Of a stretch of DNA of 47,571 bases, positions 42,149 through 47,571 are shown one piece after another (within the stretch, counting starts at the first letter, position 1; each line of letters begins with the position of its first letter). The notes beneath the pieces are model-generated. The model saw only the letters and a program-made list of their open reading frames with translations. It was not told where the DNA came from and made no database searches. The DNA comes from a virus: the UHGV virus genome UHGV-2008342; one strand, given 5' to 3'. The translations under genes and the position numbers were made by a program.

Positions 42149-42596
42149 TTGCTTTTTCTATAAGTTCGTCAGTTTCACGATCCACTACGGCAGGATCAGC
42201 AAAAAGCAGTCCGGACTCCACCACATCGCCATATTCTTTGTTTAACCCGGCGATCATGCACGTGATGCTTTTTCCGTCAGTAATTTCACGATACAACCTG
42301 AAATCACTAATCCGGATAGCCTCCATAATCGCAGGCACTAGCGCCGTGAACTTTTCACGCTTATCCCTGGTGTCGATAGCCTTCCAGCGTTCGAATATCT
42401 TCACTCGATTAACACCAAGCGCTCGCTGATCAACCGCGCCACCTTCATCTGTGACACGCTGAACATCGATGTTCGGGCGCTCTTTCAAAGCCCAGAATGC
42501 TTCAGTGATTAATATCGTCGCCTGCTCCTGTGTCATTCCTGGTCGACATATCCAGGCATCCAGAGCCTCACGAGCCTGTTCAGGAGTGATTTTCAT
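42075..42596 (-). CDS. early protein in the cII/YdaT position between the cro-like gene and O
   Basis: 173-aa ORF MKITPEQAREALDAWICRPGMTQEQATILITEAFWALKERPNIDVQRV... Its length (96+77) suggests it is the intact form of the K-12 ydfX/ydfW fragments; that is inference. Confidence 0.5.
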   Translation of the reverse strand: MKITPEQAREALDAWICRPGMTQEQATILITEAFWALKERPNIDVQRVTDEGGAVDQRALGVNRVKIFERWKAIDTRDKREKFTALVPAIMEAIRISDFRLYREITDGKSITCMIAGLNKEYGDVVESGLLFADPAVVDRETDELIEKAIAFKLAYRQQYQQKAGWNYEPSFC

Positions 42597-42810
42597 TGTT
42601 CAACCGCCCCGCCCGCTTCGTCTTACGATATTCATCATAAACTTTGGGATCATACTGAAGCTCCCCGCCAGATGCCTCCTGTAGACGCATCGCGCGACCT
42701 TCGGGAACTAAATCCCCTTTCCAGCTATAAAGCGAAGCCAAACGAATACCTGCTGCTTGTGCAAGTTTTGTTTTTGAACCGAAATACAAAAGAGCGTCAG
42801 TTTTAAGCAT
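42580..42810 (-). CDS. dicC: DicC, cro-like regulator
   Basis: 76 aa MLKTDALLYFGSKTKLAQAAGIRLASLYSWKGDLVPEGRAMRLQEASGGELQYDPKVYDEYRK. Divergent from dicA. Confidence 0.85.
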   Translation of the reverse strand: MLKTDALLYFGSKTKLAQAAGIRLASLYSWKGDLVPEGRAMRLQEASGGELQYDPKVYDEYRKTKRAGRLNNENHS

Positions 42811-42893
42811 TTAAAACACCTTTATTGTTAGTCATAACTAACAAGATAGATGTTAACAAAAACATAGTCAATACGATTTAGCATTAGCTAACT
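42811..42893. promoter_or_regulatory. dicA-dicC divergent promoter and operator region
   Basis: Perfect 20-bp palindrome TTGTTAGTCATAACTAACAA at 42825-42844 and palindrome TTAGCATTAGCTAA at 42878-42891. A related half-site TGTTAGTCAT lies downstream of dicA near 43372. Confidence 0.6.
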
Positions 42894-43301
42894 ATGGAAA
42901 CAAAAAATTTAACTATCGGCGAACGCATCAGGTATCGTCGGAAAAACCTCAAACACACCCAAAGGTCTCTTGCTAAAGCCCTGAAAATCTCCCATGTGTC
43001 TGTATCACAATGGGAACGGGGTGATAGTGAACCTACAGGGAAGAACCTTTTTGCCCTCAGCAAAGTATTGCAATGCTCACCAACATGGATTCTATTTGGC
43101 GATGAAGACAAGCAACCAACACCACCTGTTGAGAAGCCAGTTGCCTTATCCCCCAAAGAACTAGAGCTCCTTGAGCTGTTTAATGCACTGCCAGAATCAG
43201 AACAGGATACCCAGCTCGCCGAAATGCGAGCTCGAGTAAGAAACTTCAATAAACTCTTTGAAGAATTACTAAAAGCCCGTCAGCGGACAAATAAAAGATA
43301 A
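42894..43301 (+). CDS. dicA: DicA, HTH-XRE repressor
   Basis: 135 aa METKNLTIGERIRYRRKNLKHTQRSLAKALKISHVSVSQWERGDSEPTGKNLFALSKVLQCSPTWILFG. Confidence 0.9.
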   Translation: METKNLTIGERIRYRRKNLKHTQRSLAKALKISHVSVSQWERGDSEPTGKNLFALSKVLQCSPTWILFGDEDKQPTPPVEKPVALSPKELELLELFNALPESEQDTQLAEMRARVRNFNKLFEELLKARQRTNKR

Positions 43302-43467
43302 CATCATCAATGAGTTATCTTTTACCACATCAATTATGTTAGCTATAGCATACAAAATCACTTGACCGATATGTTAGTCATGGCTAATCTTGTTTGCATC
43401 AACACACCGCACGGTGTTCTCAGCAAACAGTTCCGCTACCCCAGCGTTAAGGGGAAATGAGGTCAGC

Positions 43468-43623
43468 ATGGATACTATCGATCTTGGCAACAACGAATCT
43501 CTGGTGTACGGCGTGTTTCCAAACCAGGACGGTACGTTCACCGCGATGACGTATACCAAAAGCAAAACGTTTAAAACCGAAAATGGTGCCCGTCGCTGGC
43601 TGGAAAGAAACTCAGGTGAGTGA
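43468..43623 (+). CDS. ydfA: YdfA
   Basis: 51 aa MDTIDLGNNESLVYGVFPNQDGTFTAMTYTKSKTFKTENGARRWLERNSGE. ATG at 43468 with a GGGGAAATGAGG SD. Confidence 0.8.
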   Translation: MDTIDLGNNESLVYGVFPNQDGTFTAMTYTKSKTFKTENGARRWLERNSGE

Positions 43624-43624
43624 T

Positions 43625-43753
43625 ATGGATTTCGACACAATCATGGAAAAGGCTTACGAAGAATACTTCGAAGGTCTTGCCGACGGCGAAGAAGCTCTCA
43701 GCTTCAACGAATTTAAACAGGCGCTTTCCAGTTCGGCAAAATCTAACGGCTGA
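43625..43753 (+). CDS. ydfB: YdfB
   Basis: 42 aa MDFDTIMEKAYEEYFEGLADGEEALSFNEFKQALSSSAKSNG. Starts 2 nt after the ydfA stop. Confidence 0.75.
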   Translation: MDFDTIMEKAYEEYFEGLADGEEALSFNEFKQALSSSAKSNG

Positions 43754-43782
43754 TAAGCGAAACAGCACCGCGAGGAATCAGT

Positions 43783-44001
43783 ATGCAGAAACGAGAACCC
43801 GTCATCATCGCGCCAGACTATACCGATGATGAACTTTATGAGTGGATGCGCCAGAAAATTAATGCAGCGCAGGATCTGAAATGGGCCAATGAAGCCAGGG
43901 CTAAGCAGGCTGAAAATCTGTCCGCTCTGGAGCAGGATATCACCAGGCTGGAAAAAGCAGCGGCATTAAGCATTGCAAGAATGATTACATACCCACGTTA
44001 A
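43783..44001 (+). CDS. ydfC: YdfC
   Basis: 72 aa MQKREPVIIAPDYTDDELYEWMRQKINAAQDLKWANEARAKQAENLSALEQDITRLEKAAALSIARMITYPR. Confidence 0.8.
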   Translation: MQKREPVIIAPDYTDDELYEWMRQKINAAQDLKWANEARAKQAENLSALEQDITRLEKAAALSIARMITYPR

Positions 44002-44023
44002 TAGCTAACCAACGAGGCTAATA

Positions 44024-44431
44024 ATGGAATTTAAAGATTTACCAAAAGAAATCCAGACAATTGCTGCAACGACTCTCGGTGATAGTCTGGTGAAAATTGA
44101 CCCGGCATACACCAAAAAAGAAACCATCGATAATATGGTTTGTAATGTGCGCAATGCTTTTTCTGGGCTATATGGTTCTGATAATCAAAAGCAGGAAAGC
44201 GATGTTAATAAACGGGTAATTTCTGTTTGCGTGAATGGCCATGTTCTTTCATCAATCAAAACAGAAACGGCGACAGTCTTCGATTGCCTTTGCATTGTAC
44301 AGAGCCTTGTTGATGCCCTGTTTCGTTCAGTGAATTTAGAAAATGATGCAAATCTGCGAGGGCGCACAATAGCACATCCATATGCACATACTTTAGGCTC
44401 TGTGGATATCAAAGATCCCACAAATCTTTAA
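44024..44431 (+). CDS. hypothetical protein A (135 aa), part of a low-GC insert in the dicB operon
   Basis: ORF MEFKDLPKEIQTIAATTLGDSLVKIDPAYTKKETIDNMVCNVRNAFSGLYGSDNQKQ... No family recognised. From memory, not present between ydfC and dicF in K-12. Confidence 0.5.
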   Translation: MEFKDLPKEIQTIAATTLGDSLVKIDPAYTKKETIDNMVCNVRNAFSGLYGSDNQKQESDVNKRVISVCVNGHVLSSIKTETATVFDCLCIVQSLVDALFRSVNLENDANLRGRTIAHPYAHTLGSVDIKDPTNL

Positions 44432-44642
44432 TGAAATAGTTAACGCGAATTGTACTTGCTCTTTCAGTTGCTTTCAGAATACGCGTTGAAACTGCTGGCG
44501 GTAATTTGGTATTCCATTTATTAAAATCATGCCCGGGAAAGTACTCTTCGAAAATACTTTTAACTGCAGACTCGCCTATTGAAATGCTGCTTACCATGCG
44601 ATTTTGATAAAGGCATTTAGCAATAAGAGTTGATTTTAACAT
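44409..44642 (-). CDS. hypothetical protein B (77 aa), convergent with A and overlapping it by 23 bp
   Basis: ORF MLKSTLIAKCLYQNRMVSSISIGESAVKSIFEEYFPGHDFNKWNTKLPPAVSTRILKATERASTIRVNYFIKDLWDL. Antisense to the surrounding early operon. Confidence 0.45.
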   Translation of the reverse strand: MLKSTLIAKCLYQNRMVSSISIGESAVKSIFEEYFPGHDFNKWNTKLPPAVSTRILKATERASTIRVNYFIKDLWDL

Positions 44643-44974
44643 TCACCCTCCTGAGGGTTGGTAATTAAGGAGTTCTCCACGGGTGAAGTGGAGTGCGTGC
44701 GCCGGACACGGGTGAACATCCGGCACTGACAGTTTACTGAAAGGATATATCCCTGAAAAGTCAGGGCATAACGCGAAAGCGCACGGCGAGGTAGCTGGTT
44801 CATAGATAGCCTGTCGTTAAATTTTCGTCGACCGTGCGCTTCCGGTTGTGGCAATCCGCGAAATGGCGCGGCGGTAAGTATGGCGGGGTTATTCCTTACC
44901 CCCATTGGTGGCACCGGGTTGTCAGGTTGACCATACGCCTGAGTGACAACCCCGCTACAACAACCCATGTTGAT

Positions 44975-45028
44975 TACCTTTTGGCGGGTATCCGTTTTTT
45001 GTTTTCCCTTGTGATACCCGCCCTTTTT
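44975..45028 (+). ncRNA. dicF: DicF-like small RNA (variant sequence); 5' end approximate
   Basis: Lies between ydfC and dicB. Terminator hairpin GGCGGGTATC...GATACCCGCC followed by CTTTTT; the downstream sequence AAAGTGAATTTTGTGATG matches my recollection of the K-12 dicF 3' flank. The body differs from the K-12 DicF sequence as I recall it. Confidence 0.5.
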
Positions 45029-45209
45029 AAAGTGAATTTTGTGATGCGGTGAATGCGGCTCAGCGCACGCGGAACAGTTAAAAAGCGATTAGTTCCCCCG
45101 TATCGGGTGTTTATGGGTTTCCCTGTATCCGGCGTTAATTGTTAACTGGTTAACGTCACCTGGAGGCACCAGGCACCGCATCACAAAATTCATTGTTGAG
45201 GACGCGATA

Positions 45210-45392
45210 ATGGAAACGTTATTACCAAACGTCAATACGTCTGAAGGTTGTTTTGAAATTGGTGTCAGAATCAGTAACCCTGTATTTACTGAAGATGCCA
45301 TTAATAAGAGAAAACACGAACGGGAGCTATTAAATCAAATATGCATTGTTTCAATGCTGGCCCGTTTACGCCTGATGCAAAAAGGACGCTGA
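45210..45392 (+). CDS. dicB: DicB cell-division inhibitor
   Basis: 60 aa METLLPNVNTSEGCFEIGVRISNPVFTEDAINKRKHERELLNQICIVSMLARLRLMQKGR. Confidence 0.85.
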   Translation: METLLPNVNTSEGCFEIGVRISNPVFTEDAINKRKHERELLNQICIVSMLARLRLMQKGR

Positions 45393-45394
45393 CA

Positions 45395-45598
45395 ATGAAT
45401 ACAGCATTTGCACTCGTTCTGACAGTTTTTCTTAATACAGGCGAACCAGTCGATCTTGTTATTGGTATACATGACTCAATGAAAGAATGCATGGCTGCCG
45501 CAGCGGAACAGAAAATTCCCGGCAACTGTTATCCGGTTGATAAAGTTATTCGCATGGACAATAACGAAATCCCGGCAGGACTTAAAACAGCACCGTAA
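45395..45598 (+). CDS. ydfD: YdfD
   Basis: About 67 aa from MNTAFALVLTVFLNTGEPVDLVIGIHDSMKECMAAAAEQKIPGNCYPVDKVIRMDNNEIPAGLKTAP. ATG is 2 nt after the dicB stop. Confidence 0.75.
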   Translation: MNTAFALVLTVFLNTGEPVDLVIGIHDSMKECMAAAAEQKIPGNCYPVDKVIRMDNNEIPAGLKTAP

Positions 45599-45678
45599 TT
45601 AATATCCGGTTTCATTTTTATATGCCAGCAATGGCAGGGATTTGTTCACCCTTAAATCTGTAATGAGGTTAAAACAAA

Positions 45679-47571
45679 ATGAGTAAAGTCTTTATTTGCG
45701 CCGCCATTCCGGACGAACAGGCAATAAAGGAAGAAGGTGCAGTCGCTGTAGCCACTGCCATTGAAGCCGGCGACGAACGCCGCGCCCGTGCCAAATTTAC
45801 CTGGCAATTCCTGGAGCAATATCCGGCTGCTCAGGACTGCGCTTATAAATTTCTTGTCTGCGAGGATAAACCCGGCATGCCCCGCCCTGCCATCGACTCC
45901 TGGGATACCGAATATATGCTGGAAAACCGCTGGGATGAGGAAGGCGCTTCCTTTGTTCCGGTCGAACCAGAATCCGATCCGATGAACGTCAATTTTGACA
46001 AGCTGTCCCTTGAAGTACAGAACGCGGTCCTGGTTAAGTTCGGTACATGTGAAAACATCACCGTTGATATGGTGATTAGTGCACAGGAATTGTTGCAGGA
46101 GGACATGGCAACATTCGACGGGCATATCGTTGAGGCATTGATGAAAATGCCTGAAGTTAACGTCATGTATTCAGAACTAAAACTGCTCGCCATCGGGTGG
46201 GTTAAACATAAATGTAAGCCGGGTGCAAAATGGCCTGAGATCCAGACAGAATTACGCACCTGGAAAAAACGTCGCGAAGCCGAACGCAAAGAAACCGGGA
46301 AATACACGTCTGTTGTTGATCTTGCCCGCGCCAGAGTCAACCGGCAGCACACTGAAAACTCAGCAGGAAAAATCAACCCCGCCACTGCCGCCATTCGTCG
46401 CGAATACAAGCAGACATGGAAAACACTGGATGAAGAACTGGCCTGCGCTCTCTGGCCTGGTGATATTGATGCAGGAAACATTGACGGCAGCATCCATCGC
46501 TGGGCAAAAAATGAAGTTATCGACAAGGATCGCGAAGACTGGAAGCGCATCTCCGCATCAATGCGCAAACAGCCTGATGCGCTTCACTACAGCTGCCAGA
46601 CTATTTTCGGCCTCGTTCGTGAACGTCCGATCGACATTCACAAAGATCCTGTGGCGCTGAACAAATACATCACTGAATACCTGACTACAAAGGGCGTGTT
46701 TGAAGATGAAGGAACAAATCAGAGCGCAACTGATACTCTCCCGTCGCCAGTACCAGAAGCTGATGCAGTGGAAACGGCAATGCCGAACAACGAAAAAACC
46801 GAATGCGAAGTGGAAGCCGAATCATCTGTAGAACGAGAGGGGCCGTTCTATTTCCTTTTCACCGATAAGGACGGCGAAAAATACGGTCGCGCAAACAAAC
46901 TTTCTGGTCTGGAAAAAGCACTGGCCTTGGGAGCTACGGAAATCACAAAAGAGGAATACTTCGCACGTAAAAACGGCACGTACTCAGGTTCACAACAAAA
47001 TACTGGTGCATCTGACACGACCGCACAACCAGAGCCGGTAAAAGTTACCGCTGACGAAGTAAACAAAATTATGCAGGCAGCCAATATCAGCCAGCCTGAC
47101 GCCGATAAGTTGCTTGCGGCCTCTCGCGGTGAATTTGTTGCAGGAATTAGCGACCCGAATGATCCGAAATGGGTGAAGGGGATTGAAATCCGCGATTCAG
47201 TGAACCAGAACCAACAAGAAACGGAAAAAGTCTGCACCGCCTGCGGTCAGAGCGGTGGCGGCAACTGCCCTGATTGTGGCGCGGTGATGGGCGACGCAAC
47301 ATACCAGGAAACATTCAATGAAGAGAATCAGGTTGAAGTTCAGGAAAATGATCCGGAGGAAATGGAAGGCGCTGAACATCCACACAAGGAGAACACTGGC
47401 GGCAATCAGCATCACAATAGCGATAATGAAACTGGCGAGACGGCAGATCCCTTAATTGCGGTGAACGGTCATCACGAAATCACATCCACCAGCAGGACGT
47501 GTGACCATCTAATGATCGACCTTGAAACCATGGGAAAAAATCCTGATGCCCCGATTATCTCAATAGGTGCA
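45679..47571 (+). CDS. large early-operon protein, 3'-partial (at least 631 aa): YdfE-like N-terminus, acidic linker with CxxC...CxxC, then an exonuclease-like motif at the window edge
   Basis: Hand translation from the ATG at 45679 (MSKVFICAAIPDEQAIKEEGAVAVATAIEAGDERRARAKF...) has no stop through 47571. It is absent from the ORF track, probably because no stop lies in the window. The last residues, ...TCDHLMIDLETMGKNPDAPIISIGA, look like a DEDD/DnaQ-type exonuclease motif I. Confidence 0.6.
   Translation, partial: MSKVFICAAIPDEQAIKEEGAVAVATAIEAGDERRARAKFTWQFLEQYPAAQDCAYKFLVCEDKPGMPRPAIDSWDTEYMLENRWDEEGASFVPVEPESDPMNVNFDKLSLEVQNAVLVKFGTCENITVDMVISAQELLQEDMATFDGHIVEALMKMPEVNVMYSELKLLAIGWVKHKCKPGAKWPEIQTELRTWKKRREAERKETGKYTSVVDLARARVNRQHTENSAGKINPATAAIRREYKQTWKTLDEELACALWPGDIDAGNIDGSIHRWAKNEVIDKDREDWKRISASMRKQPDALHYSCQTIFGLVRERPIDIHKDPVALNKYITEYLTTKGVFEDEGTNQSATDTLPSPVPEADAVETAMPNNEKTECEVEAESSVEREGPFYFLFTDKDGEKYGRANKLSGLEKALALGATEITKEEYFARKNGTYSGSQQNTGASDTTAQPEPVKVTADEVNKIMQAANISQPDADKLLAASRGEFVAGISDPNDPKWVKGIEIRDSVNQNQQETEKVCTACGQSGGGNCPDCGAVMGDATYQETFNEENQVEVQENDPEEMEGAEHPHKENTGGNQHHNSDNETGETADPLIAVNGHHEITSTSRTCDHLMIDLETMGKNPDAPIISIGA

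Follow-up and report, generated by a model that had tools for sequence, protein, structure and literature searches.

DicF is among the oldest known bacterial small RNAs, and dicB, which follows dicF in the Qin prophage of Escherichia coli K-12, is a potent division inhibitor. To our knowledge, there is no explanation of how transcription divides between stopping at the DicF terminator and reading through it, and the 300 nt that precede dicF have so far passed for plain spacer. The window analyzed here is the whole 47,571-nucleotide virus genome UHGV-2008342. A sequence-only reading of the window had described the interval behind ydfC as a single low-GC insert in the dicB operon, composed of two convergent overlapping ORFs (A and B) and a hairpin-rich non-coding stretch. 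Our analysis gives a different picture. It is fairly probable that the interval comprises two independent features that are neighbours in this prophage lineage, namely a gene-pair cassette and an RNA in the dicBF leader, with the roles proposed below. The comparisons establish what each feature is, how it is conserved, its strand and the RNA structure; the two mechanisms are inferred.

Layout of the ydfC-dicB interval

From dicA to dicB, the gene order in the window is ydfA, ydfB, ydfC, A and B (Table 1). The coordinates of both ORFs and the 23-bp overlap of their 3' ends were reproduced from the sequence, and all six hairpins named in the sequence-only reading were found at their places. The size of the insert had to be revised. 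In MG1655, 340 bp already separate the end of ydfC (1649041) from the start of dicF (1649382; NC_000913 annotation), and when the window is aligned with both K-12 and phage Evi, the extra DNA amounts to 634 bp (44021-44654) instead of about 950 bp. The hairpin-rich stretch is not part of this insert. Positions 44656-44965 are about 94% identical to the ydfC-dicF untranslated region of K-12 Qin (NC_000913 1649042-1649381), in the same position and orientation; K-12 Qin thus has the same content for the hairpin stretch but not for A and B. Likewise, the description as low-GC applies to A plus B (38.8%) but not to the hairpin stretch (54.7%, compared with 50.2% for the whole window). Of 5426 complete E. 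coli genomes, 652 contain at least 80% of the 1751-bp query 43700-45450, which covers the cassette and its flanks, and so do phages Evi and PPompW. At least 80% of 44640-44990 was carried by 3368 of the same 5426 genomes (~62%).

Table 1. Features in and around the ydfC-dicB interval of the window.
Feature	Position	Strand	Remarks
ydfC	43783-44001	+	RefSeq annotation of homologous locus; phrog_1744 match; directly upstream of ORF A
DNA absent from K-12 Qin	44021-44654		634 bp, 38.8% GC; ORFs A and B are its only content
ORF A	44024-44431	+	135 aa, two modules; phrog_1363, E 7e-46
A/B convergent overlap	44409-44431		23 bp; stop regions of both genes
ORF B	44409-44642	-	77 aa; predicted small five-helix cytoplasmic protein
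5' part of ydfC-dicF untranslated region	44656-44829	+	Also in K-12; hairpin mosaic
Pseudoknotted RNA module	44830-44972	+	Covariance model R1; 143 nt, last part of untranslated region
boxA-like motif GTGCGCTTCCGGTTGTGG	44834-44851	+	Within module
hp0	44857-60/44867-70	+	CCGCG-AAAUGG-CGCGG, 6-nt loop
P1	44872-75/44913-16	+	Helix of module
Pseudoknot	44878-83 (GUAUGG) with 44931-36 (CCAUAC)	+	Covarying helix
hp1	44885-88/44900-03	+	Loop pyrimidine-rich
hp2	44918-24/44944-50	+	Inner stem 44925-27/44937-39
Intrinsic terminator, dicF position	44983-45028	+	Stem 44983-45023, U-tract 45024-45028; from sequence reading and ViennaRNA screen
dicB	45210-45392	+	Pfam DicB, E 1.5e-37; its transcription must cross the upstream terminator

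ORFs A and B form an interlocked gene pair

A and B are real genes. ORF A consists of two modules. Residues 1-55 (MEFKDLP...GLY) form a module common to several PHROG families (N-terminal-only matches to phrog_9419, 2151 and 6937), and residues 55-128 match phrog_23433. Residues ~62-135, which have the pattern VNG..T..A..D..LE..AN..G.T..H, are hereafter designated as the A-C domain. As the sequence-only reading had expected, neither protein belongs to a known family: no match was found for A or B in Pfam, NCBIfam or PADLOC (the latter at E <= 1). Structure prediction was successful for one of the two proteins. The AlphaFold model of ORF A was poor (pLDDT 49.7) and too weak for a structure search, whereas that of ORF B was good (pLDDT 96.7) and all-helical. 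A fold search of the PDB with ORF B returned no match, and profile searches of the A-C domain and of ORF B against PDB sequences, as well as B family members against Pfam, gave noise only. The source label 'dGTP triphosphohydrolase' on the exact B sequence has no supporting similarity and was treated as a mislabel. A literature search by the protein accessions and PHROG identifiers of A and B found no papers.

The B family comprises at least 163 clusters at 50% identity, and its length is constant across genera at identities of 55-72%. Trp43 is invariant and Cys10 is nearly so. The C-termini of the two proteins (..IKDPTNL* and ..IKDLWDL*) are encoded by opposite strands of the same overlap DNA, and this arrangement is widespread. 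Among 81 B loci in IMG/VR, 72 have a convergent partner that overlaps by 23 bp (rarely 26 bp), and the genomes of Dickeya, Serratia, Klebsiella and Yersinia that we inspected show the same 23- or 26-bp convergent overlap. In every genus examined, the convergent partner of B carries the A-C domain, and the overlap is nearly always of these two lengths. When used alone as a homology query, the A C-terminal domain did not reach the distant partners because of the word-index limit of the search; the link to them was drawn from genomic context and alignments instead. On these comparative grounds, the conserved unit is the A C-terminal domain together with B.

The N-terminal part joined to the A-C domain varies. 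In other phages, the domain is fused to a ClpX zinc-finger N-terminus (PF06689, 34.1 bits). The partner proteins of Yersinia-type phages (191-193 aa) terminate in the A C-terminal domain, and their N-terminus is 37% identical to YdfC over 62 aa (E 7e-10). Taken as a guide to function, this gene fusion in other phages indicates that YdfC is functionally linked to ORF A. A and B constitute a widespread, unstudied two-gene module whose genes interlock in an unusual way and which gene fusion ties to the uncharacterised YdfC of K-12.

ORF B is antisense to the early-left operon, in agreement with the sequence-only reading. In the phages of Serratia, Klebsiella, Yersinia and Dickeya, the repressor and the early-left promoter are followed first by the A-C gene. 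A TGGTATCTT extended -10 is conserved ~35 nt upstream of B in four genera and is a putative promoter of B that faces the A-C gene. ORF B in the window lacks this TGGTATCTT promoter, and a sigma-70 scan, which overall found no more sites than in shuffles, detected no promoter-like site on the minus strand of 44643-44970. Therefore, B in this prophage may have low expression or depend on a promoter located farther upstream. A simple terminator scan reported a sole site at 44983 and none between A or B and their neighbours, so that the transcripts likely overlap.

We propose that B would be made while the early operon is silent, i.e., in the lysogen. Upon induction, transcription of the early operon would cross B in antisense and yield the A-C protein, which may act with or on B, and the pair would constitute a lysogeny/induction-coupled protein module. 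The strict gene coupling, the interlocked 3' ends and the opposite transcriptional regimes would also suit a toxin-antitoxin, abortive-infection or superinfection-exclusion pair, in which B is the lysogen-expressed effector and the A-C protein is the antidote supplied by the early operon. The low GC content and patchy distribution, which are typical of accessory 'moron' genes, and the variable N-terminal modules on the A-C domain point in the same direction. However, the searches of PADLOC, Pfam and NCBIfam matched no defence or toxin-antitoxin family, the convergent layout is unusual among protein toxin-antitoxin pairs, and B is not a type I-like hydrophobic peptide and has no known-fold relative. 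A pair of this kind is unlikely.

The 5' part of the untranslated region is a hairpin mosaic

The hairpin richness of 44643-44970 was reproduced: there are 19 inverted repeats (perfect 6-mer, loop of 3-60 nt) compared with 4.6 +/- 2.7 in 500 dinucleotide shuffles, none of which reaches 19. In the 5' part, hairpins are located at 44701-44724 (GCCGGA..TCCGGC) and 44751-44766 (CCCTGA-AAAG-TCAGGG). In the latter, both arms differ in a compensatory manner between the window (CCCTGA/TCAGGG) and phage Evi (CTCTGA/TCAGAG). A long stem of 44779-44786 and 44832-44839 (GCGCACGG/CCGTGCGC) encloses a variable hairpin, and its 3' arm falls just within the module at 44830-44972. Sub-segments of the hairpin region are swapped between prophages, which makes it a mosaic. 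In Serratia and Yersinia phages, the DNA just upstream of B is homologous to the 90 nt nearest B in the window, the 44701-44724 hairpin included.

Two kinds of coding candidates in this region were rejected. The minus-strand 110-codon ORF (44636-44968), whose composition had been judged not protein-like, has no credible family match and is unannotated by RefSeq in homologous loci. Small ORFs, e.g., the one starting at GTG 44682 after AAGGAG, have too long a spacing, and nothing in them is conserved.

The module folds into a pseudoknotted RNA on the plus strand

The last 143 nt of the untranslated region form a module of six helices, one of which is a pseudoknot. With R1, the covariance model of this module, the copy in the window reaches 160 bits and 88 loci give 92-163 bits, and the paired cells in the module alignment amount to 97.7%. 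In the comparison of homologous loci, double changes were observed at 10 pairs, compared with 4.2 +/- 1.0 in shuffles (0/500) and 0-2 in slid controls; these shuffle controls overstate the significance, since the alignments behind the counts had been fitted to the model and contain related sequences. The compensatory changes are located in hp1, hp2, P1 and the pseudoknot. One pair of the pseudoknot is U-A in 42 sequences, C-G in 12 and U-G in 7, and is never unpaired. A second pseudoknot, between the hp1 loop and the linker GAGGA, was considered and rejected. Only K-12-type copies are complementary there, and the pairing is absent from the window and from the L045 and Erwinia variants.

This evidence bears on whether the hairpins have any specific function. 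Hairpins acting as a G-rich Rho shield over the 600-nt untranslated gap, or left behind as mosaic recombination junctions, would be consistent with the G-rich plus strand and with the exchange of sub-segments between prophages. Such an explanation is nevertheless very improbable because the conservation of unpaired nucleotides across genera, the compensatory changes in four helices and the covarying pseudoknot argue for selection on a specific fold.

On the minus strand, the G-U pairs would turn into A-C mismatches; examples are the inner-stem pair, with G-U in 20-58 sequences, and one invariant U-G. Judged from this G-U pattern, from the orientation before terminators and from the genomic contexts, the module is a plus-strand RNA, i.e., it lies on the strand of the dicB operon. 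Of the earlier suggestion that the stretch is a structured RNA or a regulated leader, the structured RNA is confirmed by covariation, but it is on the plus strand and is not a leader of B. The module is found at loci that lack B in K-12, phage cdtI, Citrobacter, Erwinia and phage-plasmids, and it is missing at every B locus outside the E. coli lineage; therefore, it is not the leader of B. Copies beyond E. coli were found in E. albertii and in five other enterobacterial genera, namely in Citrobacter, Serratia symbiotica, Trabulsiella, Erwinia and Izhakiella. The phage-plasmid copy is located between a 1148-aa ORF and a terminator with tRNA genes, all on one strand.

A minus-strand origin of the whole hairpin stretch, as a structured RNA or leader of B that would form one lysogen-expressed defence insert with A and B, has some points in its favor. 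Measured by the z-score of the minimum free energy, folding is stronger for the minus strand (-3.25) than for the plus strand (-1.22), and a promoter-like site at 45235-45207 (minus strand, 9/12 matches) could give a long leader. The homology of the 90 nt nearest B was mentioned above, and a 63-aa alternative antisense gene adjoins the same untranslated segment in other E. coli prophages. We consider this origin quite improbable, however. The stretch is present in K-12 without B, the distribution of the module across B loci is that described above, and only a plus-strand RNA agrees with the G-U pattern and with the terminators downstream. The plus strand has a GC skew of +0.13 to +0.22, i.e., it is G-rich, and an RNA made from the minus strand would be rich in C, as Rho targets are. 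In addition, no PADLOC defence family was matched. What appears to survive of the original idea is the resemblance of the ~90 nt nearest B to the upstream region of B in other genera.

No Rfam 15 family was found for 44640-45060 or for the K-12 copy at E <= 10, apart from chance-level matches (13 bits, E ~8). Over 42500-46500 at E <= 1, the only match was to STnc100, below threshold and downstream of the module. The module would represent an RNA family without a counterpart among the Rfam 15 models. In the searchable literature, we found no structure or role described for the untranslated part of dicBF upstream of DicF. The supposed spacer ahead of dicF is exactly where this conserved pseudoknotted RNA sits, in about 60% of complete E. 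coli genomes.

A terminator at the dicF position and the proposed role of the module

A Rho-independent terminator is present between ydfC and dicB, upstream of dicB at 45210; the simple terminator scan reports only its short inner hairpin (44983-44996). The stem of this terminator agrees with DicF at its base (UUUGGCGG..CCGCCCUUUUU) and differs from it in the upper part. The DicF model RF00039 (gathering score 48 bits) gives 76.7 bits for K-12 dicF and no match at E <= 10 in 44640-45060 of the window. The same non-DicF variant of the terminator occurs in many prophages. In a ViennaRNA screen of the module loci, nearly every module copy is followed by a terminator with the conserved stem base. 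The module lies 40-130 nt ahead of the terminator, and the spacer between them is A/U-rich in most variants. In phage-plasmid copies, the terminator is unrelated and not DicF-like.

This arrangement may be explained in more than one way. The module may not be an element of transcription elongation and may instead form the main part of a longer stable RNA or serve as a processing scaffold. Such a scaffold would steer or limit the RNase E/RNase III cleavage that frees a DicF-type sRNA, or would stabilise the 3' end of the cleaved ydfABC mRNA. According to the accounts of Faubladier 1990 in passages of PMC5069750 and PMC9438474, RNase E generates the 5' end of DicF from a polycistronic transcript. 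The A/U-rich spacer is consistent with this explanation, as is the fact that the module and the terminator travel together beyond the dicB operon. However, a cross-genus six-helix pseudoknot fold with invariant loops, although the invariance of the hp2 loop comes partly from its use as a search pattern, exceeds the need of a 3'-end protector. The phage-plasmid terminator, which is not DicF-like, indicates that the module is not tied to DicF. We regard the scaffold as rather unlikely.

A classical riboswitch or attenuator was also considered and rejected. Comparison by eye of the listed variants showed no covariation of the tail CCGCC/CCACC to the GGCGG arm. The variable spacer length (20-110 nt) and the unrelated phage-plasmid terminator are at variance with riboswitch-type switching, and there is no consistent pairing between module and terminator.

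We tentatively treat the module as a cis-acting element controlling read-through of the downstream terminator, an assignment that is possible rather than probable. The module would act in cis on its own transcript, most likely by modifying the elongating RNA polymerase, or it would otherwise set the balance between stop and read-through at the terminator. A stop would release a DicF-like sRNA, and read-through would give dicB/kil, the exonuclease, xis and int. If this is true, the gated terminators decide between a DicF-like sRNA and the genes for division inhibition, recombination and excision, and the module bears on how N-less lambdoid phages pass early terminators. It is doubtful whether the interval represents, more broadly, a new class of cis-acting transcription-control RNA that gates DicF-type terminators in N-less lambdoid prophages of Enterobacterales and in phage-plasmids, together with a separate, new lysogeny/induction-coupled system of two proteins, [A-C + B], along with YdfC. 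The RNA of such a class could be a factor-independent processive antiterminator unrelated to put; a new riboswitch or ribozyme is less likely.

Comparison with known systems

Lambda oop RNA and cII, as well as mutually exclusive transcription of the 'excludon' type, resemble A and B in having facing units with overlapping 3' ends, one of which is repressed in the lysogen. A and B differ from these in that both encode conserved proteins and the overlap lies inside both coding regions. RNase III or interference effects may occur at this overlap. The low GC content, the patchy distribution and the antisense position in the early operon are shared with prophage morons and exclusion genes such as sieB and rexAB, and B in other genera also has the own promoter of moron-type genes, at least putatively. 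In contrast, B has no sequence or fold relation to sieB or rexAB and is always paired with an early-operon partner gene. Type II toxin-antitoxin systems are co-transcribed neighbours with toxin and antitoxin folds, whereas A and B are convergent and match no toxin-antitoxin family. In type I systems, a short hydrophobic toxin is opposed by a non-coding antisense RNA, whereas B appears soluble and the opposing transcript encodes a conserved protein.

The K-12 Qin dicBF operon (ydfABC-dicF-dicB-ydfD) has the untranslated region of the window in the same place. The window differs from it in that A and B lie between ydfC and this region and in that the hairpin at the dicF position fails the Rfam DicF model.

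In the module, the boxA-like motif is located 8-11 nt before hp0, an order that recalls boxA and boxB of lambda nut and a spacing that would suit them; rrn-type boxA antitermination is a further point of comparison. Compared with nut boxA (CGCUCUUA-like), Trabulsiella and Serratia-type phages have the exact motif UGCUCUUU, whereas it is degenerate here, where GUGCGCUUCC (44834-44843) is off the boxA core. The 6-nt loop of hp0 is unlike boxB, and several module copies (loci L004, L014, L023 and L039) lack the boxA-like motif. Lambda nut has its cognate N gene just downstream, whereas the N gene is absent at module loci: lambda N and 933W-type N gave no tblastn match in 295 module-bearing loci. 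At the sole N-bearing locus, L015, the 5' segment and the terminator are present and the module is absent.

HK022 put (putL/putR) is a factor-independent processive antiterminator of ~70 nt with two stem-loops (PMC9378689), which suppresses downstream terminators in cis and is blocked by mutations in the beta' zinc-binding domain. Like put, the module is a structured RNA in a lambdoid early operon that is located before terminators and would act in cis. A search of HK022 24.5-34 kb by blastn-short and model R1 found no similarity to the module, only chance 12-13-mers. With ~140 nt and a pseudoknot, the module does not have the features of put, and it occurs once per phage with no right-operon copy, whereas put occurs in both operons. 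The putL sequences all contain a -10-like NANNAT (PMC9378689), and the module contains an invariant -10-like AAGTAT.

Organization of the region

The layout is listed in the table below. Both ORF A and ORF B are genuine genes, and their 3′ ends overlap by 23 bp, as the sequence-only reading had described, and the six hairpins that it named are all found at the locus. The hairpin stretch (44643–44970) contains 19 perfect 6-mer inverted repeats, compared with 4.6 ± 2.7 in dinucleotide shuffles (0/500 reach 19). Because the overlap, the hairpins and the excess of inverted repeats are all present, the raw observation stands. The reading as a whole is only partly confirmed, and its picture of a single low-GC insert that includes a minus-strand leader finds little support.

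In a three-way alignment, window 44656–44965 corresponds to the K-12 Qin stretch between ydfC and dicF (MG1655: end of ydfC, 1649041; start of dicF, 1649382) with approximately 94% identity, whereas 44021–44654 has no K-12 counterpart. The DNA beyond K-12 is therefore not the claimed ~950 bp but 634 bp, comprising ORF A and ORF B only. This extra DNA indeed has a low GC content (38.8%), but the hairpin stretch does not (54.7%; whole window, 50.2%). At least 80% of 44640–44990 is present in 3368 of 5426 complete E. coli genomes, and at least 80% of a 1751-bp query covering the A/B cassette and its flanks (43700–45450) in 652 of the same 5426. Phages Evi and PPompW also carry the cassette.

Features of the dicC–dicB region (window coordinates). 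ORF/RefSeq: ORF calls and RefSeq annotation of near-identical loci.
Feature	Coordinates	Strand	Length	Basis
dicC-like	42580-42810	-		ORF/RefSeq
dicA-like	42894-43301	+		ORF/RefSeq
ydfA-like	43469-43623			ORF/RefSeq
ydfB	43625-43753			ORF/RefSeq
ydfC	43783-44001			ORF/RefSeq
ORF A	44024-44431	+	135 aa	
ORF B	44409-44642	-	77 aa	
Non-coding stretch	up to ~45209			
dicB	45210-45392			ORF/RefSeq
DUF1482 (ydfD-like) gene	45395-45598			ORF/RefSeq

The A/B gene pair

ORF A and ORF B match phrog_1363 (E = 7e-46) and phrog_10348 (E = 1e-47), respectively, both labelled 'unknown function', and Pfam, NCBIfam and PADLOC searches gave no match for either, in keeping with the initial statement that neither belongs to a recognized family. 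Homologues of B, nearly constant in length (74–82 aa; 55–72% identity), occur in Klebsiella, Dickeya, Xenorhabdus, Morganella, Yersinia, Serratia and Salmonella. The B family comprises at least 163 clusters (profile search of 1.84 billion representatives), with Trp43 invariant and Cys10 almost invariant. The exact ORF B sequence carries the label 'dGTP triphosphohydrolase' in one public source (cluster look-up); neither sequence nor fold backs this label, which is probably an annotation error. ORF A is modular, with residues 1–55 common to several other PHROG families and residues 55–128 matching phrog_23433. Its AlphaFold model (pLDDT 49.7) was too poor for use.

The conserved unit is the C-terminal domain of A (A-C) together with B. 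In Dickeya, Serratia, Klebsiella and Yersinia prophages, B is convergent, with a 23- or 26-bp overlap, with an ORF of 77–191 aa that is homologous to ORF A residues 62–135. An A-C-type convergent partner is found at 72 of 81 IMG/VR B loci, and in 62 of these 72 it is the 135-aa E. coli form. The A-C partner of other genera is the first gene past a cI-type repressor and thus heads the early-left operon; B faces it, with a conserved extended −10 (TGGTATCTT) ~35 nt upstream of its ATG. No TGGTATCTT promoter precedes B in this window, and a promoter scan of the minus strand upstream of B within the hairpin stretch detected no sigma-70-like site, which is a caveat for the lysogeny/induction-coupled reading given below.

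The N-terminus attached to A-C varies: it may be lacking, the MEFKDLP module as in this window, a ClpX C4 zinc finger (PF06689, 34.1 bits, cut-off 27) or YdfC-like (37% identity to the window YdfC over 62 aa, E = 7e-10). The zinc-finger fusion was seen in one lineage, as the 156-aa partner of B at IMG/VR locus L226, and the YdfC-like fusion in the 191–193-aa partner proteins of Yersinia-type phages (L233 and L154). The latter links ydfC, which lies directly upstream of A here, to the A-C domain, and by the Rosetta-stone principle it hints that YdfC, an uncharacterised K-12 protein, may work with the A/B module.

In comparison loci L010, L011 and L015, the partner of a 201-aa A variant is instead a 63-aa antisense gene unrelated to B (MTQEEKVMF.., phrog_2605). 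The two again overlap by 23 bp and adjoin the same downstream segment; the cassette boundary in this comparison falls within the 3′ end of A. Since the phrog_2605 gene replaces B there, the antisense position behaves like a slot able to hold different genes.

A simple consensus scan found no terminator-like site between ORF A and ORF B, so an early-operon transcript would probably carry the full B antisense, and a B transcript would enter A and ydfC. Judging from this arrangement, A/B may be a lysogeny/induction-coupled pair, a reading to which we give somewhat less than even weight: B would be made while the early operon is repressed and, once the operon fires, would meet opposition both from collision or antisense pairing and from its protein partner. 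A toxin–antidote or exclusion pair is one form of such coupling, and one that we consider unlikely. A/B is a widespread, unstudied interlocked gene pair with a fusion link to YdfC, and is of moderate interest.

A pseudoknotted RNA module on the plus strand

The 3′ part of the hairpin stretch also occurs in E. albertii, Citrobacter, Serratia symbiotica, Trabulsiella, Erwinia and Izhakiella, in phages cdtI and mEp460, in one Actinobacillus phage record and in pacA-bearing phage-plasmids. RNAalifold analysis of 24 diverse copies predicted four of the helices, namely hp0, the closing P1 (CGGU/ACCG), hp1 and a long hp2 with an inner stem, with compensatory changes at 8 pairs. R1, the covariance model of this module, scored 92–163 bits in 88 loci, including window 44830–44972 and K-12. 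In the R1-fitted alignment, 96.8% of the cells are paired and 8 pairs show double changes, compared with 1.9 ± 1.1 after shuffling (0/500) and 0–3 with slid partners; the enlarged alignment has 10 such pairs, compared with 4.2 ± 1.0 (0/500) and 0–2 in slid controls, all counts coming from model-fitted alignments of related, partly pattern-selected sequences.

A candidate pseudoknot joins GUAUGG (44878–83) to CCAUAC in the hp2 loop (44931–36). IMG/VR was scanned for copies with an altered CCAUAC, and three pseudoknot positions were probed. CCAUGC accompanies GCAUGG (U-A to C-G) in two independent cases, one phage-plasmid lineage and the K-12-like prophage copy L392, and it accompanies GUAUGG (U-G wobble) in 7 unique sequences; GCAUGG with CCAUAC was never found among more than 90 unique copies. 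In the enlarged alignment, this pair is U-A in 42, C-G in 12, U-G in 7 and unpaired in 0 sequences.

The proposed structured RNA is thus borne out by a covariation-supported fold, but its assignment to the minus strand is not. The strand-telling pairs, one invariant U-G and one G-C/G-U position with 20–58 G-U sequences, would become A-C mismatches on the minus strand, which places the module RNA on the plus strand. All copies are oriented with the early-left operon, and nearly all have a plus-strand intrinsic terminator 40–130 nt downstream, with a conserved stem base (UUUGGCGG..CCGCCCUUUUU) and a variable top. The thermodynamic z-score is −3.25 for the minus strand versus −1.22 for the plus strand; we take this preference to be a base-composition effect and weight it below covariation and context.

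Nor is the stretch a leader of B, because the module does not depend on B. Every E. coli-type B locus has it, on the strand opposite B; B loci of every other genus have none, even at E ≤ 1; and it is present without B in K-12, cdtI, Citrobacter, Erwinia and phage-plasmids. Only the ~90 nt nearest B are related to B surroundings elsewhere: the GCCGGA..TCCGGC hairpin (44701–44724) aligns with a covarying one (GCCGGG..CCCGGC or GCCUG..CAGGC) shortly upstream of the B promoter in other genera, where the reverse complement of a boxA-like motif is likewise matched just upstream of that promoter.

A sigma-70-like site (TTGACG-17-CATTAT, 9/12 matches) lies on the minus strand at 45235–45207, pointing leftward from inside the dicB start. 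Were this site active, its transcript would be antisense to the module, the dicF-position hairpin and the dicB leader.

The dicF-position hairpin and the dicB leader

The dicF-position hairpin (44975–45030) has no Rfam DicF match at E ≤ 10 (K-12, 76.7 bits) and has only the stem base in common with K-12 DicF. This hairpin or another variant of it is seen in many prophages, so DicF-like terminator sRNAs may form a family with interchangeable upper stems or seeds. In L014 (Actinobacillus phage vB_Apl-pPE4 record), an E. coli-like dicA–module–kil region at 2478–2900 has two DicF-like terminators in tandem behind the module; either the record or its host assignment may be open to doubt.

Between this hairpin and dicB, 45035–45187 matches Rfam STnc100 below threshold (34.3 bits, gathering 47, E = 6e-5), as does the K-12 copy (34.1 bits). 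In K-12-type copies (L003), the post-hp1 linker (GUUGAGGAC) is identical to the dicB ribosome-binding region (window 45192–45203), and the pyrimidine-rich hp1 loop (UCCUU) resembles an anti-Shine-Dalgarno sequence. The linker of this window (44903–44912) has diverged (AUUGGUGGC), but the loop is retained. A role of the loop and linker in dicB translation is possible. On the minus strand of phage cdtI (L012, 40–228), next to the antirepressor gene, C4 antisense RNA (Rfam, 68.4 bits) is adjacent to isrK (60 bits); both are unrelated to A/B and the module.

Possible role of the module

Rfam 15 gave no match at E ≤ 10 to the module, in either the window copy or the K-12 copy. The module has no similarity to the HK022 put region (put features: PMC9378689), and no riboswitch-like alternative pairing with the terminator was found.

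In the early-left operons bearing the module, kil/dicB, exonuclease, xis and int lie past the intrinsic terminator. Two protein queries detected lambda-type or 933W-type N in 0/295 module-bearing loci; L015, the sole N-bearing relative, has kept the 5′ segment and the terminator and is missing the module. In a phage-plasmid, the module likewise lies between an ORF and a terminator that is followed by same-strand tRNA genes. Most lineages have a boxA-like UGCUCUUU motif ahead of the module.

The motif (window 44834–44851; also L007, L028, L154 and others), with the consensus GUGCKCUNNNCGUUGUGG, is a conserved element of early-left transcripts in many of these phages. The exact UGCUCUUU occurs in Trabulsiella and Serratia-type phages, and certain Serratia and Yersinia loci have the motif even though they lack the module.

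PMC5069750 and PMC9438474 describe the DicF 5′ end as cut by RNase E from a polycistronic transcript and the 3′ end as set by Rho-independent termination or RNase III. The module could act as a processing or stability scaffold for a DicF-type sRNA, which we regard as rather improbable. Our own tentative suggestion is that it may be a cis-acting setter of read-through at DicF-type terminators, either put-like or Nus/boxA-assisted. The module is of moderate interest as an undescribed pseudoknotted RNA immediately ahead of a classic sRNA terminator.
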